Origin: Halocafeteria seosinensis
Lineage: Eukaryota
DNA length: 64,000 nt
NCBI GenBank assembly: GCA_001687465.1
Contig: LVLI01000005.1
Span: forward strand, 186,001-250,000
Direction: 5' to 3'
How positions within the stretch are numbered: position 1 is the stretch's first letter; every line of letters begins with the position of its first letter. The notes beneath the pieces were generated by a model that was not told the DNA's origin, searched no databases, and was given only the letters and a program-made list of their open reading frames with translations. Below, in pieces: positions 48,851 through 58,770 of the stretch. Position numbers and translations under genes: made by a program.

Positions 48851-49367
48851 CTCCCATGCACGTATTCCTCATTGCACCCGAATCCTAGTCAAACTACAAC
48901 AAACGCATGAAGTATATCTACCACAAAGCCAACCTAAAGAGTGATAAATCTTGTCCTAAACCACTATAATAGCCGCGAACTCGATGATCTACCCACTAAT
49001 AAAGGTTCCTCTAGAGTCTGGAGGAACATTACAATCTTTTCGTTATGTTGCAACTTCAAGCAAAGAAAAGTAAGTCGTATCAGAAGCCAGGAGGATGCGA
49101 TGAGGAATCGTGGAAAACGACGAGAAGTTTTGAGTGCCTGTAGACCAAATGAACTTTTGGGGTAAGTGATTGCCTACGCATCTGTACTCGCTTGGGAACT
49201 GATACTGGAATTACTTGGAAACTCCTCGTATGGATTCTCCCCTTTTGAACTTGTGAGGCTGGGAACAAAAAAGCACCGGGAACGTCGCATAGGGGGATAC
49301 TGAGGGAGCAAAAACTATTGGGTTCGATCGTGGCCGAATTGGGACGTTTACACAGCATTTTGGCACG

Positions 49368-51917
49368 ATGAAGGCTCTATTTCCACGCGGTTTCCGATAC
49401 TCTTCGGCATTTCTGCGCCGTTCCAATCTTGGGCAGCAAGTTCCGCAACGCTCCTTTGCGACAGCGGAATCGAGCAAACAGCAGCCTCCATTGAAAGCAA
49501 ACACCGAGACTTCACAATCCAAGTCTACGACGGAAGGTGGACAAAAGAGTGGAAGTGGAGGCAGTACTAGTAGCAGCGGTGGTGGCGGAGGCGGCGGCAG
49601 AGGTGGGCTGTATTTCACCATCTTTGCAGCAGGTGGTGCCGCAGCAGCGTATTACTATGCGGATGATTTAGGCTTGTCCAAGTACATTGAGGACTTAATG
49701 GGCAAACCAGCTCCCGCTGACGACATGAACCAGAAGAAATCACAACAGAAGGCAGCTGCTCCGGCAAAAGAGCAGACTTCGAAACCCGCTCCTCCCGCAC
49801 AAGAAAAGAAGCCCAAGGAGGAGAAGGATTCGACAGCCACTCGAAAAAGTGCTACTGGAACCGTTTCCCAGCGGTCGAAACAAGACATAGAACAAGAAAA
49901 ACAGAGCCTTAATGCTGCACTATCTTTAGCAGAGAAAGCAATAGAGAAGGAGAAATCAAAACAGAAAGACCAGCAAAAGTCAGCATCGACGATTCAAGGA
50001 TCTAGCTCTACATCTGGCAAGACCGAAGAGCAATCGCAACGCGAACAAGAAAAAAATGCTTCCCAACAGCAAACACCCTCCCAAACAGTCGATCAGGAAG
50101 GAGGTGAGCACTCGACTACTGAAGGCGGTAGCCATGGCCAGCCTCAAGAAAAGGGATCAGCAACTGGGAGCTCCGAAAGTTCAAGCAAGTCATCCAGCGG
50201 GACCAGCAAATCCGATTATACTACAGAACGCATTGCAGAGGAGCTAAGGGAAGATCTGATAGCCCGAACGAGAAAAAATGTGGAAAACATGTCGGAAAGT
50301 GAATTGCGGGAACGCGTTTTGCTCCTGACTGAGGAGCTATCTGAGCGAAGCAAATGGGAAGTATGTCTATTTCGTCCTCACTCGCTAAATGGATCGCCTT
50401 CATAGATTGGCTTTTTTTGATTACAGGCGATTCGGATCAATGAGTTTCTCCGTGCTCAAGAGGACAAGTGGCACCAACGGTTTGCCGAATTTGCGGAAGA
50501 ACAACGGCAGGCTCTGGCTGCTGAAATTGAAGATGAAAAATCTAGGGTTTCCAAACAGCTGGAGCAGCAGAACAAGTAAGTCCGGGTCCACTTGTTACAT
50601 AGAGCTTGTCCAGTGATGCGTATTGTTCTATTGAACCGAAACGCGAAGCGCTACCATGTAGTGTTTTGAGCTGAATGTGGACCGCACTTTTTCCTGAGGA
50701 CATTGTTCATAGAATCTTAGTACTCGTCGGGAGGGCTAGATGGCCTAGGATGGTTAATCTAGAATTACCCTGAAAATATTTGTAGAAAACTTATTTTACT
50801 GAGGCCACCAGCCCCCTGCCACTGAGGATTCGAGGATGTAATCTTTTATCTTAGACTCTCCGCAACATGGCTGGCTATTGTCACCATGAGTGTTGAATCG
50901 CATGGCTTACTGAGAATCCTCCCTTGTTACAATTGGCTTCGTGTCAGTGTACTCCCGTAGCACTTCTAACTGGTCATGTTCTTTGTGTGTTTTTGCAGCG
51001 AATGGAGGAATAGCGAATTGCAACGGATGTCGCATGAAGTTGAGCAAATAGCTCAGTCGCAACTTGGAAAGCTTCTTCAACAGGTAAAAGACCATGATGC
51101 CAAAGTGACGCAAGACCGATTACGAACGTTAGAACACTTAAGAGGGAAAATGGAAGGATTGTCGGAGGGTCTCGAAGAATATCATCACTACAACGTGCTA
51201 TCTAACAACGTACATAGAATAGCCACGAGCAGTTTATATCTACTCCAAGCCTTTGAATATGAAAAGAAGCAGCCGTTAACTGATGAAATAGCAGCCATCG
51301 AAGTTGCTGGGAAACGCGATGATGCAATATCATTAGCTGTCAAAATGATGCCTTCCTGTGTGCACTCTCCAAAAGGGCCGCCTACTCGCCAGGAGCTCTT
51401 CACTCGTCTTAGGCGAGTACTGCGAGCTGGAGAGGCGGCAGCACTAACGCCTCAAAATAGCGGTCTTGTCGGCCATGCAGTCGGCAGTGTCACCTCTGGC
51501 CTGCTGTACAAAGAGGAAGAAGACGTTCCGTCTTTCGGTCCGTCGTTGCCCTCTGATGGTTTGCTCTCACCCTATGTTGAGGCTGCTCGTGGAAAGCTCG
51601 GTGCCGTGCTGAACCGGGCTTGGGACTCAACCAAGGACGCTGCATCTCAGTTGGTCCCCACTTCTACTGAATCAGAGAGCGCAAGTAACAAGAATGTATC
51701 GAAACAGCAGGAATGGAGCAGAATCATTGAAGAAGCTACCGAAGCGCTACATGGCAATGATCTCAGCGGTGCCGTGCGAGCGCTGGACAAACTCGAAGGG
51801 TACCCTGCGGTCGTGGTGAGAGACTGGAAGAAAGAAGCGCGTGAGCGATTGCGTATTGAACATTCTATGAGAATCATACGGGCCGAAACGACCTGTCTCA
51901 CGGTTAGTATGTATTAA
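49368..51917 (+). CDS. MIC60: MICOS subunit Mic60 / mitofilin
   Basis: Mitochondrial presequence, one TM segment (GLYFTIFAAGGAAAAYYY), coiled coil, and C-terminal mitofilin domain (AVRALDKLEGYPAVVVRDWKKEARERL). Two introns, the second 423 nt long. Confidence 0.85.
50608..50682 (+). ncRNA. Candidate box C/D snoRNA 1 (MIC60 intron)
   Basis: Terminal stem GTCCA/TGGAC, C-like box GTGATGC (50613-50619), D box CTGA (50671-50674). Target unclear. Confidence 0.5.
50688..50777 (+). ncRNA. Box C/D snoRNA 2, predicted guide for 18S Am159 (human numbering)
   Basis: C-like box TGAGGA and D box CTGA (50770-50773), directly preceded by TCTAGAATTACC, the complement of conserved 18S GGUAAUUCUAGA. The D+5 rule lands on the known Am159 site. 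Confidence 0.75.
50826..50919 (+). ncRNA. Candidate box C/D snoRNA 3 with an 18S 5'-region guide
   Basis: 6-bp stem GGATTC/GAATCC, degenerate C box AGGATGT, and D box CTGA (50910-50913) preceded by GCATGGCTTA, complementary to 18S UAAGCCAUGC. Confidence 0.65.
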
Positions 51918-51948: not shown

Positions 51949-54493
51949 TTATGTATCTTCTTCATCGTTACTGCCGTTTTGCGGGGTTATTGCTTCATCG
52001 CCCATTTCCGAGTCAACATTGTCCGATGCCGCGTGCTGCCCCGTTGCTTCTTGAACTGTACCGTTCACTCCGTTGGAAGTGCGCTTCGAGAGATGCATGT
52101 CCACATAGGTCTTCACGACGAATTTGCTTTCGCAAGCCTTATACGCCATGGGTCTAACCTTCCCATAGATTTCTTTCTCCTTGGCGCCCATATCATGAAC
52201 ACCACCTACACAGGACGCACATCCTGCTATGCCAAGCGGATCTCTTCCATCTATGCTATACCTGTCATGCAGAAGGCTCAACACAATGAAAATAGGAGCT
52301 CACGTCAACGTACAGACATACTTATCATTCAGATGCAGCGCCACTTCCAATGCTTCCTCCGGAGACTGGCACAACTCTAGTAACCTCTGCGAGCAAACGT
52401 TGCACCACAAAATGCTCAGTGCTCCAAGTTTATCCATTGAGTTTAGTTCACTTACTTTTGCCCAATACTGCCTTGTGACAGGATGCATTTTTCCATGCCG
52501 AACCATTTCCATTTGTGAGGCATTCCATAAGTCATCATTAGTCTGACCATGCTCGAGATCTTCAAATGAGTGCGCATCTGGACGCGGATCTTGTCTGCAG
52601 GGAATGGAATTGACGTCGCACAATGACAACTTGCTAGTCTTCCGAAGTTGAGAGCGTTTGACAGAATTCATACCTATGCTCCTCAAGAGATTGTTTGGCC
52701 CAATCTGGGAACCCGTCTATAGTATCATGCGAGTCAACATAGTAGCAGAAATTGTCGCCCAACTCCTTTCGCACCACTAGTTCGTCGACAAAGACTTGAG
52801 ATCCTGTCGTCCGCATTTCTTGCTTTTCAACAAACAAGTCTGAAACTGCATACTTATGCACCCTTATCATCTCTAATACGATACGCTGAGCCGCTACATG
52901 ACCTGCGGGCAAAAAAAAAAAGGTGCGATTGAAAACCACAGCCTGTCAGAAGATGCTGTCCCCTTACCATAATTTAGGTATGGAGATAACCCACTCAATG
53001 CAGCCGGCTTATTTGGGTCGTGTTTCTTCTCCGGGTAACTTTCTATTTTGCCATGTAAAAACTTGTCCAGCGTCCGAGCAGCACCACGTTCTCCTGGGAT
53101 ACAGAAAGTCACCTCTGGCACGCTCCAATCGATTTCTAGACGGTTGAGTACAGTTTCCCAGTCAGTCCAAGGGACTCCCGCGTTGTTCTCTAGGGTCTTG
53201 ACAACTATACCGGATTCCGTTTCCCCGCCGCTGCGAATAACGGTACATCCGTTCTCCAAACGGGAAGGGAAATCAAAAGGCTGTTCTAGTACGTGCGGGA
53301 AGTCTGTCAGAAAGCTGCTCAGTCCTTTGTAGATCTTCTTTCTCATTGTTCGTGTGCCCACCTGTGAACACAGTCAGTGCAAACAAATTAAACATCGGGT
53401 TAAGTTACGAACAGACAGCCATATTCAGCTTACTTCTGCTTGATTGCTAGCCGACCAAACAGGAACAATGTTATGCGCGTCAATCTCCTCAAAGGTAACA
53501 TGCTCATCGAGACTAGAGGCAACTTCGTTCTTCCACGCTCGTACCACCTTCATCGGAGAAAAATCTGCGAGAGTAATATATCAGAGTCACACAAGGCGCG
53601 CTCATACAAGACAGTTGCCTTCAGCGCAATTGTAAAATCACCAACCTGTTATAACAGCACTCGCACCGATACTCTTTGCATAGGCAGGAACAGTCTCAGA
53701 CGGATTTCCTAGGGCCAAGCGAAAGATCATGTTGAATGCCCGAAGATCAGCCTCCAACTGCCTCAGACCGCGTAACAGGAAGCCCTGTTCTCGAGCGGTT
53801 GAGTAACCAGTTGCAGATTTCGGTGGTAACGCAAATAGTACAACTAGTGGCTGCTCCTTTCTAACTGCTCGGAGTTGGGCATGTATCAAGGCCCAGTTGT
53901 CCATAAGCCGCTGATCTCGCTGCATCCAGTAAATCACCGGTCCCGGTGCTGACTTTTTCCCCTTCTGTAGGACATTAATCCTACTCTTGTCGAAGCCTAC
54001 AGAATCATCGTGTTCAAACTCGACAGCGTCGTACAAGTTCGTCGTGACCACCACATTTGACTCTGTTAAACGACGGAGAAGAGAAGCTCTAGGGTCCTTC
54101 TGCTCTTCATTTGTTCCGGACTCTGATCTCTTTGGCTTGGATGAAGCTCCTGCTGTGAGTTCTCGGTACGATTCACTTTTCCATTTCTTCAGAATATCTC
54201 TGCATTTCGTCCGTATGGACAAGGGCAGTCTGGATTCCTTGCGCAGTCTTTGGAATATAATTGGCACTTGGGTTTTCTGCATACATAAACACACACACAC
54301 ACATGGACGACAAGGTGATATACGGGAGCATTCTTAGTTTTCATTGGGGCTCAATGGACGGACGTACAGCTAATGCAGTGGCAGAAATGGGAGAGGCCTC
54401 CAAAGACTGCAATATTTCGAGCGCATGGTCGATGTTTTTGTCAGTCAAAGCTTGCTGTAAATCATGCACTGTACTGCGCAATGTCTCCTCCAT
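51949..54493 (-). CDS. Class II CPD photolyase-like protein with N-terminal TFIIS-N (LW) domain
   Basis: PVIYWMQRDQRLMDNWAL, LSGLSPYL, ELVVRKELGDNF, LWNASQ, GKMH, LNDKYSIDGRDP and GGVHD are class II photolyase motifs. Exons 1-2 encode ALEILQSLEASPISATALAKTQVPIIFQRLRK...CRDILKKWK. Confidence 0.88.
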
Positions 54494-55140
54494 GTCGCGT
54501 GTAGAGCCGTGTTGGTCATGGAAAAATGGAAAACAGAAATCTACACCACCACCTCGTAAATGCACGACACACACATACACACACACAATCCTTTGGCGGT
54601 GAGGAAACTACCAACCCTTCCTCCAGCTAGCAAGCTAGAAGTCTTGTGAACCACGCGGTGGAAGTGCAAAAACTTTGTTACCCGGTATTATTACGTGAGA
54701 GTGGAATTTCAATATTTAGCCGCGTAGAAGGTTGATTTGCTAGCAGTGGGAAAGTGCTTCTCTTTGCTTTGGTTGGTTGGGAAATCCCTTCCCCCACAAG
54801 GCGGATTCCCCAACCGAGACTCCGGGCAGCCTTCAACAGTTGCGACACGTTGTCCCGCTCGATTTGGTTTTGTTACTTTGTTCTGTGGGTGAGACTGATT
54901 TGGACGGTCTGGATTGAGAATACGCGCATCACTTGGGATCTCTCAATTACGAACATTTCCTAAGTTATTTCTTCAATTCTAAATTCTGACATACAATACA
55001 ACAGCACAAGTACGTTTCTTTATTTCTCACAGCCGTCTTTGAACAAGTACCAGCCAGCAGTAAGTGGTAAGATTGGTTGAAGACAGAACAGCGCATCCGG
55101 ACTGATCATCGAGTAAAGTTTTTTTTCAAGGTGTACGCAG

Positions 55141-55552
55141 ATGTCGCAAGGAAAGGATCAACAAGGCATTGAAATGCAACAAGTGAGTAGTGTAGTGGTA
55201 GTTAGTATGGCGATGGCTCGAGAGAGTATCCGTTTACCAGGGTGTACCACCGCCGCAGCCTGTACCGCAGCCTGTAGCACAGCCTGGTCCACAGGCAGTG
55301 CCTCCCCCACAGAGCATGCCTCCAGGGCCCCGGTTTCGGGAATACAAAGTCGAGGAAATTTCTGGTAAATGCTGCCCGGTCCTCTGCTGGTTATCAAACA
55401 CTCCTTCGGAAGAAATTCAGCAACAACTTACCAACGAAGCACAGAGCGGGTGGACGCTAGTTGAGCGCAATGATGAATACAGGGGGTGGCCACTATGCCA
55501 GATGCTATGCTGCTGTCACTGGAGGGTTTCTATATTAACTCTTGGTCGATGA
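55141..55552 (+). CDS. Small Pro/Gln-rich, Cys-rich protein (DUF4177-like)
   Basis: Two exons. PQ-rich N-terminus, then EYKVEEI...LTNEAQSGWTLV and CC clusters. Confidence 0.55.
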
Positions 55553-55738: not shown

Positions 55739-56539
55739 CTACAGAGCATACTGGATATCAACATTCGGGGCACGTCCCTTGACAAGCAGTCGGTCAAAGC
55801 TCCGGATCGAAGCGATTGGAAATCCGAGTTTTTCGCGATTAATTTCATCCACATCTTTTTTCCACTTCATATCTTTGCTTTTGTACGTTTCCACAAACTC
55901 CATCGCAGCGGCCTTAGAGGAATCCGAGGAGGAGCTGACAACTCCTTTGTTCACAATATAAATCTGGTGGCGCCAGTCTTCAGCAACATCGAGACTTTTG
56001 CCGAGATTCTCTTCTCCTTCCCCATGATAATGTACAGTTGGAACAAAAACATATCCATCCCGGATAGAATGAGAATATGCCATGGGGTGGTAAGTGTGGT
56101 CACCTTTTTTCAGTTTGCAGATAACGAAACCGTATTCGTCCGTATACTTCCGGTCCATAAAGCGTAATAAACTCTGTGTTACGCCAAATTTGCTCGAGTC
56201 GAGCTTCTCGAGTTCCCCTTTATTTTGGGCAATAGACACATCGTACGACCCAACTTGAAACACTTGGAGCTTAGATTTCGCACGAAAGCTTCTCAAACCA
56301 CGAGATGTGTTAACCATCATGGATCGACAATCTTCGAATATGGAGGGGTATTCTGTCAAGTCGTGGAACTGAATATCTTCGCTTATGTTTGTGGATGGGA
56401 CAGCTAACACCATGAAGTTATCCGGATGCTTCGTCCCCACTTTATTCGAATAGACCACCACTTGCCTGTCGTTTGCTTCATTGGGACCGACGAGAATCTC
56501 CGTGCCATTGACACTGGCACTCTGCGAAATGATGCACAT
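55739..56539 (-). CDS. Intronless conserved hypothetical protein resembling a giant-virus/bacterial family
   Basis: MCII..RQVVVYSNKV..NFMVLAVP..VFQVGSYDVS..GFVICKL..YHPMAYSH..VFVPTVHYH..DWRHQIY. Likely start is the ATG at 56539. Confidence 0.65.
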   Translation of the reverse strand: MCIISQSASVNGTEILVGPNEANDRQVVVYSNKVGTKHPDNFMVLAVPSTNISEDIQFHDLTEYPSIFEDCRSMMVNTSRGLRSFRAKSKLQVFQVGSYDVSIAQNKGELEKLDSSKFGVTQSLLRFMDRKYTDEYGFVICKLKKGDHTYHPMAYSHSIRDGYVFVPTVHYHGEGEENLGKSLDVAEDWRHQIYIVNKGVVSSSSDSSKAAAMEFVETYKSKDMKWKKDVDEINREKLGFPIASIRSFDRLLVKGRAPNVDIQYAL

Positions 56540-56738
56540 TATTAATCTCAATAGACGCCGATATTGATTCTCCGCGCGAGGGAGTGAGATTCCAGCACCA
56601 ACAACACTGCGGAGGATACTTGAAGTACTTTGGTCAGAGTTGGAATTAGTGGCTGTCCCTACACGGTTCGGGTCCAATAGGAAGAAGAAGAAAACACTAT
56701 ATGCCATAGCTAGGTTAGAATTTTCCGTTATCGAGATC

Positions 56739-58770
56739 ATGTCTGCTGACGCATCTCATACGAGAACGAGACTCCTCTTCAATACGGGAAGCATTTCGGC
56801 CACGACAACGATATCAGCCCACCATTCTGCTCATAACGGAGACGATGATAACAAGCAAAGAGACGGAACGACGACCCACACGGTAAAGGGAGGAAGTGCT
56901 GGAGAAGAGAAATTCTCTGCCTCCTCCTCGTATGGAGATGTTGCGGTGGCGCGGTCGGCGACTGCCACCTCTTCACAGGAAGTAGCAGCTGATCATGCAC
57001 GGAGCGAGAGAGAGGATGATGCTGGCCAGACACACCCGGATGAAGACCCTACAACAGTGCAGGCGATTAAGGCGGCAGCGTTGGCAAAGGCGCTGATGAG
57101 TGGTGGGGAACGCAGCAAAATGGACAAGAAGCGACGCAAGGAGGAAGAACGCCGTGAAAACTTGATAATGAAACAGAAACACGCATGGGAGAAAATCATT
57201 GAAAAATATCACTCTACCGGCTATCTTCCAGCGAGGACCAAGTTAGAAAATCTAGGGATAAGTGGCATACCCTCCGCCATACGGCACCGCGCCTGGCCAG
57301 TATTAATCGGCAACAAAATGCAAGTCACGCCAGAATTATTCGGAATTTTCCGGGAGCGAGCAAAGTGGGCACGAGAGCGCGTCCAGGCAGATCAAGAGGA
57401 ACAAGAAAATGCATCTGATGAGCAAAATGATGAGGAGGATAATACATCTCATGGAAGTGTTCGCTCTAGGAAGAATAGTGTTCGGTCCGAGAACTCTACA
57501 CACCACGGACCTGCTCCTCCCACGCTTGGGAGAGAGGAGAGTATCCGATTAATCGAAACTGATCTTGAACGCACATTTCCTTCCCTGGCTTTCTTCAAAG
57601 AAGGGGGCCCGCTGCACGAGCCCCTGAGGGACATCCTGGAAGCGTTCGTATCCTACCGGCCGGATGTTGGATACGTCCAAGGAATGAGCTACTTGGGAGG
57701 AATGCTGCTACTTAATGTTGGTGATACCCCGACGTGCTTCCAATGTCTCGCAAATATGCTCGCCAGTAGCACCTATTTTGACTTTTACCGCTTGGATATG
57801 GCTAAGGTAAGAGTCACGGTCGTCGAGTCTACTCAGATACTCAGTTCGATACCTCACCGACTTGATGCAGATGCGCGAACATCTACGCGTCTTCGATTAT
57901 TTCTTCGCATATCACATACCTGTATTACATGCGTACTTTTCGCAAGAAGGGGTAATGCTTGAGGTACGTATATACTTGGTGTTCTCTATGCCCAACATTA
58001 GTTTGAAACGAGTGTTCCCGCAGTCTTCCATCCTTGGATGGATATTGACCCTCTTCAGTAATGTTCTACCTCTCGATATAGCGGCGAGGATATGGGATTA
58101 TTATTTTTGCTCTACTGAGACCGTAGTTTGGACCATTGCGCTTGCGCTGTTGAAGATGCTCGAGCTCCACGCTCTTCAGTCGGATTTTTCGGGCATCATG
58201 AATATGCTTCGACGTCCCCCTGAGGTATGCGACGATATACTGACTAACAGAAAGATAAATTTGCGATATTCACATACTTGTGTATTGCTGCAGTATATCG
58301 AATGGAGTGGTTTCTTCGACGTAATAGACAGCGTGAAAATTGATGAGAAGAAATTCCATGACTTATTGTTCAAAGTAAAGAACGGCACTGAGCTGAAACC
58401 CCCCACGCCTAAAACTTCCAGTTTCAAGTATGCCTCGTACGCACCAGCAGCAGCCGCAGCCGCCACCGCTAGGAGTAATCGCTTACGCTCCGTCTTGGTG
58501 AACCGATCACTGAGGCCCGGCACAGAAGAGACCAGTTCCACTGCCACAAGTGAAGAGGTCCCCGAATCGTCAATAGGTATGCTGGCATCCACCACAAAGA
58601 GCAAACTTAAGACTTTTAAAGACAAGCTTATCCCACGTGCGCATACTCCCGATAGCCATGACGAGGGTGCCGCAGGGGTTACTAGCTCCAAGACGGAGAC
58701 GTTAGACCACCACGAGAACGGTAACGGTGAGGCCAATCAGGCCTCGGGGAGCAATGGTGCTAAACAGTGA
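56739..58770 (+). CDS. TBC-domain Rab GTPase-activating protein (TBC1D12/14-like)
   Basis: GIPSAIRHRAW, IETDLERTFP (Arg finger), YRPDVGYVQGMSYL (Gln finger) and ARIWDY. Confidence 0.9.

Follow-up and report, generated by a model that had tools for sequence, protein, structure and literature searches.

A TFIIS-type N-terminal domain fused to a class II photolyase-like domain in Halocafeteria seosinensis and in relatives from algae and protists

A TFIIS N-terminal domain, or TND, is described as a five-helix scaffold with no known catalysis, which recognises short acidic motifs in IWS1, SPT6, PAF1, LEO1 and other transcription factors and for which, in human TFIIS, a link with nothing but nuclear localisation is on record as well (PMC9987994). 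The available sections of that review name no repair enzyme as a TND carrier. Cryptochromes are photolyase-fold flavoproteins, mostly without repair, that regulate transcription, and TFIIS is not mentioned in the available sections of two sources on them (PMC4564169, PMC12558739). One combination of the two folds is in print: a single sentence states that Chaan_9990, a CPD class II protein of Chattonella antiqua, has an N-terminal TFIIS domain. This protein is known to us by description only, and the available part of the report gives no function, family or residue analysis (PMC6685483). Here, we describe a gene of Halocafeteria seosinensis whose product, like Chaan_9990 as described, combines a TFIIS-type domain at the N terminus with a class II photolyase fold. 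The preliminary description of this DNA knew of no account of such a fusion and is corrected by the Chattonella sentence; added here are the scope of the family and an eroded member. Our literature search, which left subscription journals mostly outside, returned no functional study of a TND–photolyase fusion, and a fuller description may exist.

Gene structure and transcript support

The gene lies in a 64,000-nucleotide window (the whole stretch of DNA that was analysed) with the style of a compact eukaryotic genome and short introns. Its features are as follows.

51949–54493, minus strand: whole gene, eight coding exons, 675 residues; identity to P0001 and spliced contigs
54493–54368, 54276–53646, 53564–53434, 53361–52968, 52902–52674, 52594–52456, 52386–52322 and 52261–51949, minus strand: coding exons
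54368–54493, minus strand: exon 1, 42 codons from the ATG at 54493; residues 1–42, predicted TND helices 1–3
54277–54367, minus strand: intron 1, 91 nt, phase 0, with ends GTACGT...ATGCAG and a GT microsatellite near the 3' end; bridged by contigs
54151–54276, minus strand: residues 43–84, predicted TND helices 4–5 with the basic cluster and W74 (Pfam, alignment and model)
53989–54150, minus strand: residues 85–138, a short low-confidence hinge (residues 88–93) and an ordered extension common to the relatives P0060, P0002 and P0061
52093–53988, minus strand: residues 139–628, homology region of the class II CPD photolyases, eroded at the lesion pocket and at the distal tryptophan (profile, fold and alignment)
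51949–52080, minus strand: residues 633–675, acidic C-terminal tail, predicted to be disordered (pLDDT below 50 for residues 647–675)
54494–54795, minus strand: leader within the span of these spliced contigs, with an assembly break rather than a demonstrated start site at 54795

The joined translation of the eight exons agrees at 675/675 residues with the EukProt protein P0001, whose label gives it as a complete ORF taken from a transcript record. The ATG at 54493 is the first in-frame Met, with an in-frame stop 38 codons upstream; introns 2–7 are all GT–AG and 60–81 nt long, and the frame ends with the stop at 51949. Contigs from three of four sequencing runs (X2, X3 and X4) skip introns 2–7, and in the same three runs intron 1 is bridged by pieces 53646–54275 and 54368–54795, which follow each other at a distance of one base within a single record; the corresponding joint is absent from the joint list owing to the GT repeat. 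Run X1 is unspliced across the gene. None of the four runs is recorded as RNA, and all come from one study, with X2–X4 from one sample (at most two samples in total); the structure is thus confirmed by them, but not by independent data sets. Within the coding part, the contig alignments show a single substitution, which occurs in one run. The 48-residue database protein P0063 follows exon 1 up to the intron and then departs from the read-through of the window, and thus provides an independent marker of the exon 1 boundary.

The phase 0 joining of exon 1 to the photolyase ORF, proposed earlier from the letters alone, is therefore borne out by the identity to P0001 and by the contigs across the first intron, and the same spliced contigs reach upstream of the ATG to 54795. 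The TND and photolyase parts belong to one protein. Mis-splicing or a chance join of two genes is ruled out by the spliced contigs, the P0001 identity and the score of residues 1–85 compared with shuffled sequences (see below). The TND–photolyase fusion is real and is expressed as one protein.

The neighbouring gene encodes mitofilin (Mic60; 50970–51917 and 49293–50405, plus strand) and is convergent with the fusion gene. The two stops are 32 bases apart and the spliced contigs of the fusion gene continue through the mitofilin gene, so the 3' ends likely overlap. On the other side, a divergent spliced transcript (54849–55552, plus strand; joints 55059–55141 and 55065–55140) starts within about 400 bases of the fusion ATG and yields a short frame that is rich in Pro/Gln and Cys and has no match in Pfam; a two-way promoter common to it and the fusion gene is possible. 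A 338-residue frame at 55739–56755 (minus strand) has no Pfam match at an E value of 1. Pfam-assigned neighbours in 4085–58770 include a WD40 protein, a PI4-kinase (3103-codon frame), CFAP58, a SMUBP-2-type helicase with an AN1 finger, and PDZ, translin, EF-hand, peptide deformylase, LRR and TBC proteins.

The TFIIS-type and photolyase-like domains

In the 675-residue protein, PF08711 matches residues 26–75 with 26.6 bits, which exceeds its cut-off of 20.6 (E = 5.3e-6); Pfam searches of single exons gave weak hints only. Residues 1–85 score 42.9 bits on an HMM of 13 relatives from which the query protein was left out, compared with 12.5 for the best of 2,000 shuffles. AlphaFold2 predicts five helices in residues 2–84; the single-sequence fold of the 675-residue protein is reliable for residues 1–84 only. 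The top five fold matches of the TND model among 48,161 chains are all TND-family domains (Z = 12.1–10.1), led by the LW domain of yeast TFIIS (7faw; Z = 12.1, r.m.s.d. 2.0, 82 aligned residues). Unrelated helical repeats come next with Z = 9.9, a margin too small for the identity of the domain to be settled by fold alone. The earlier assignment of the first ∼80 residues to a TFIIS-type N-terminal domain is upheld by the profile and fold matches together.

With TFIIS, MED26, Elongin A, IWS1, LEDGF and PNUTS the domain shares the five-helix bundle and a PF08711 score above the cut-off; it differs from them in its partner, which is a flavoenzyme fold in place of TFIIS domains II–III or chromatin readers. 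A profile built from eight fused fragments scores highest against TFIIS (52–53 bits), followed by MED26 (37), Elongin A (34), PNUTS (28) and LEDGF (26). With TFIIS as the best profile match, the TND of the fusion was likely taken from a TFIIS gene. An Atlas search with residues 1–140 returned Med26 clusters at 0.82–0.83, which we treat as a lead only. TNDs bind an acidic motif through hydrophobic pockets and a basic patch, both located on helices 3–5. Within residues 43–75 of the Halocafeteria protein lies a basic cluster comprising R52, R54, K55, R58, R64, K66, R68, K72 and K73, together with W74. The linker was considered as an internal TND-binding motif but not retained as such: the FxGF form is missing from it, and a comparable stretch stands ahead of the photolyase domain in the unfused proteins P0153 and P0178.

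The photolyase-like region (residues 139–628) matches the class II enzymes of rice (3umv; E = 3e-116) and Methanosarcina mazei (2xry; E = 3e-108). A model of the full protein computed with a 79-sequence alignment has a pLDDT of 89.9, with low confidence only at the hinge (88–93) and the tail (647–675); the photolyase fold is complete in it and superposes on 3umv with a TM-score of 0.90, in agreement with the class II photolyase-like domain of the preliminary description. The whole homology region is shared with the class II CPD photolyases (3umv and 2xry/2xrz) at 37–41% identity and a TM-score of ∼0.90, and W360, W381, Y380, E301, D428 and R441 are common to them and the Halocafeteria copy. 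The TIGR00591 score is 485.2 bits, under the cut-off of 550, as is that of a Cafeteria protein (468), compared with 584–648 for four intact fusions. Scores on the cryptochrome profiles lie far under their thresholds (TIGR02765, 37.7 versus 317 bits; TIGR02766, 28.2 versus 604 bits). The Halocafeteria copy resembles cryptochromes in its photolyase fold and disordered C-terminal tail, but is of class II (cryptochromes match at E = 1e-4 or weaker) and carries its own docking domain. A second photolyase was not found in the window.

Functional sites of the photolyase domain

Sites are numbered as in M. mazei and were transferred by the photolyase alignment, with roles as given in the available parts of two studies (PMC6126647, PMC5885780). 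At the lesion pocket (W421, M379, N257, E301, R164, R256 and position 305; PMC6126647), four of the seven named sites depart from the class II consensus in the Halocafeteria copy (W421S, M379Q, N257H and R256K); E301 and R164 are kept, and position 305 is Arg, as in 51/51 references. In the bubble-intruding region (D428, R429, W431 and R441; PMC6126647), W431A replaces the aromatic residue and R429M is present, with D428 and R441 kept. The electron relay, a tryptophan triad W381–W360–W388 with Y345 (PMC5885780), shows W388L and Y345H and retains W381, W360 and the back-up residues Y380 and Y445. Besides its TND and these substitutions, the copy is set apart from class II photolyases by G375P. 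Sequencing error was considered as the source of the odd residues and discarded, as genome and transcript protein agree at 675/675 residues and the contigs show a single coding substitution. At R378, N403 and D409, which we take to be flavin sites, the residues are kept, and N414L is changed; FAD binding is only predicted.

Overall, the Halocafeteria copy is changed at 9/19 paper-named functional sites, compared with 16 of the 115 remaining columns that are at least 90% conserved (p = 0.0018, one-sided Fisher test). The corresponding number is 0–2 of 19 in the four full-length fused relatives P0190, P0064, P0075 and P0228, in which the catalytic set is essentially intact. W421, M379 and W388 are invariant in all 50 unfused references with a residue there. 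The Cafeteria protein P0079 is altered at the overlapping sites R256, N257, M379, R429 and W431 and keeps W388 and W421; with 5/19 named sites changed versus 16/115, targeting is not significant there (p = 0.15). W421S and W388L are known from a single species, as the C-terminal part is missing from the closest relatives P0060, P0002 and P0061. Another pattern of erosion is present in P0165, in which the pocket is kept and Y380L, K384N, E387L and Y445S surround the water network of the distal tryptophan (3/19 named sites changed; p = 0.40).

On these alignments, the Halocafeteria copy is a catalytically eroded variant in which lesion-pocket and distal electron-transfer residues are affected, and the erosion weighs against ordinary CPD repair by this protein. 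Some repair activity may remain, as E301, R164, D428 and R441 are kept, R429M is described as a tolerated change (PMC6126647) and the W388F change costs steady-state photoreduction no more than about a factor of two (PMC5885780). A ruined pocket combined with a retained fold, TND and inner relay would fit a repair-poor flavoprotein with a regulatory role. The reading that we place first, tentatively and at somewhat under an even chance, is that the Halocafeteria copy is such a flavoprotein and acts as a light/redox-responsive partner of the transcription machinery, with its TND likely on acidic elongation-factor motifs; it is ranked ahead of a working tethered enzyme, a localisation tag and decay.

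That the copy is still a working photolyase, slower or re-specified and held by its TND on elongating Pol II, where local concentration offsets the weaker pocket, seems rather unlikely. Such an enzyme would be in keeping with the intact fold of the model, with the retained E301, R164, D428, R441, W360, W381, Y380 and Y445, with the Tyr380/Tyr445 side path that can stand in for W388 (PMC5885780) and with the essentially intact state of the four full-length fused relatives. It has to contend with the loss of four of seven pocket sites together with W431A, and with the absence of any change of W421 or M379 in the 50 unfused references.

A photolyase under relaxed selection, heading to decay with no new role, is an improbable account of the gene, although of 67 conserved C-terminal columns the copy keeps only 48, below the whole range of the near-complete unfused references (53–67; n = 50) and of P0190, P0064, P0075 and P0228 (60–64), and an early loss of catalysis would also be expected under relaxation. 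Against decay stand the open 675-residue frame with seven canonical introns and spliced transcripts, the retention of 99/115 other conserved columns, with many of the changes conservative, and the architecture kept in relatives at 40–64% identity; the similar erosion in Cafeteria suggests an old shift.

Fused relatives and possible roles

A search of 1.84 billion cluster representatives with residues 1–200 gave 556 matches. Among the 150 of these that were listed, 20 clusters have a TND ahead of the photolyase start according to our own HMM (E < 0.001; run on 224 proteins), 13 of the 20 being seeds of that HMM, and Pfam places both domains above cut-off in 13 of 30 clusters selected because their matches were long or N-terminal. 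An Atlas cluster of 105 members (score 0.98 to P0190) contains PF00875 in 100% and PF08711 in 94% and is 95% eukaryotic; Chlorophyta is the commonest phylum among the 20 members with a known phylum. The Cafeteria roenbergensis protein KAA0155568.1 (P0079) is also fused, with a TND under the Pfam cut-off that is detected by our HMM at E = 1e-4. The architecture sought in relatives is thus present well outside this genome, and the fusion is not the peculiarity of a single genome. As judged from these searches, TND-bearing class II photolyases are a widespread eukaryotic family, barely noted so far.

P0079 is 1141 residues long, including ∼290 acidic residues ahead of the TND and ∼200 residues that follow the photolyase region, and its gene model may be over-joined. 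In P0068 and P0165, the TND is preceded by a hydrophobic leader of 55–75 residues and, immediately ahead of the domain, by a second Met; these presumably correspond to alternative starts for organelle and nuclear forms. No TND was found in any frame at 49 metagenome loci, and a viral scan returned one locus, which matches the photolyase part only. Word-based protein searches (with residues 1–150 and with an eight-sequence profile), a method that needs shared five-residue words, returned only P0001.

In a 37-row tree (LG+G4; P0116 and short fragments left out), the Halocafeteria copy groups with Cafeteria and eight other rows (support 100/99), and further fused rows lie elsewhere on the eukaryotic side. 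A single clade of the 17 fused rows and P0059 is rejected (AU p = 0.007); with the unfused P0057 added it is not rejected (p = 0.051), this group having been picked after the tree was seen. A clade of the five eroded or partly eroded rows is likewise not rejected (p = 0.065). The fusion may have arisen once, with losses, or in several separate events.

We regard it as improbable that the TND is a tag for nuclear import, chromatin retention or stability only, without specific coupling to elongating Pol II. The link of the TFIIS TND to nuclear localisation (PMC9987994) agrees with a tag, as do a TND that is divergent or partial in some relatives (under the Pfam cut-off in P0079 and P0072; a pairwise match to helices 4–5 only in P0002) and its absence from the sampled plant and vertebrate-like class II proteins. 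A tag would account less well for a whole five-helix TND with a basic face kept across deeply separated branches of the tree. Some fused members (P0075 and P0228) moreover bear basic stretches, presumably ordinary localisation signals, in addition to the TND.

The favoured reading, a repair-poor regulatory flavoprotein, builds on the observed fusion, domains, family and residue losses, and adds docking, flavin and activity steps that we infer from sequence. In the first step, the TND of intact relatives would dock on TND-interacting motifs such as those in IWS1, SPT6, PAF1 and LEO1, and would so concentrate the photolyase on genes under transcription, in which photorepair is hindered by stalled Pol II. 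Photolyase is thought to act poorly on the transcribed strand, since stalled Pol II covers the lesion and excision repair is left to act; yeast photolyase is reported to be slower on this strand, which is attributed to stalled Pol II (PMC12153352, PMC7694213). Given this slow repair and a motif-binding TND, the simplest use of an intact fusion would be to hold photolyase on elongating Pol II, and tethering to Pol II factors would apply to the Halocafeteria copy and its relatives alike. In the second step, lesion binding would have been relaxed or dropped in the branch of the Halocafeteria and Cafeteria genes, with fold, TND and inner electron relay (W381, W360, Y380 and Y445) retained. In the third, the state of the flavin, set by blue light or cell redox, would alter the action of the tethered protein on elongating or stalled Pol II, in parallel to cryptochromes after their loss of repair.

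Of the two options offered in the preliminary description, the erosion would favour a light/redox regulator for the Halocafeteria copy, and the intact relatives would fit transcription-coupled handling of lesions. Further points count against the favoured reading: the erosion in Cafeteria is not significantly targeted and W388 and W421 are kept there; the TND of TFIIS has been linked to nuclear localisation alone (PMC9987994); and Pol II would still have to retreat from the lesion before a tethered photolyase could act. The broader proposal that in many algae and protists a TND-docked photolyase reaches the transcribed strand, and that the Cafeteria branch turned it into a class II-derived, cryptochrome-like sensor in the elongation machinery, is a doubtful one.

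The fusion family adds an enzyme fold to the known TND carriers. With intact and eroded members side by side, it may represent a further route from class II photolyase to cryptochrome-like regulator. A natural joining of photolyase to the commonest docking fold of elongation factors also makes directly testable the question of whether tethering brings light repair to transcribed DNA.
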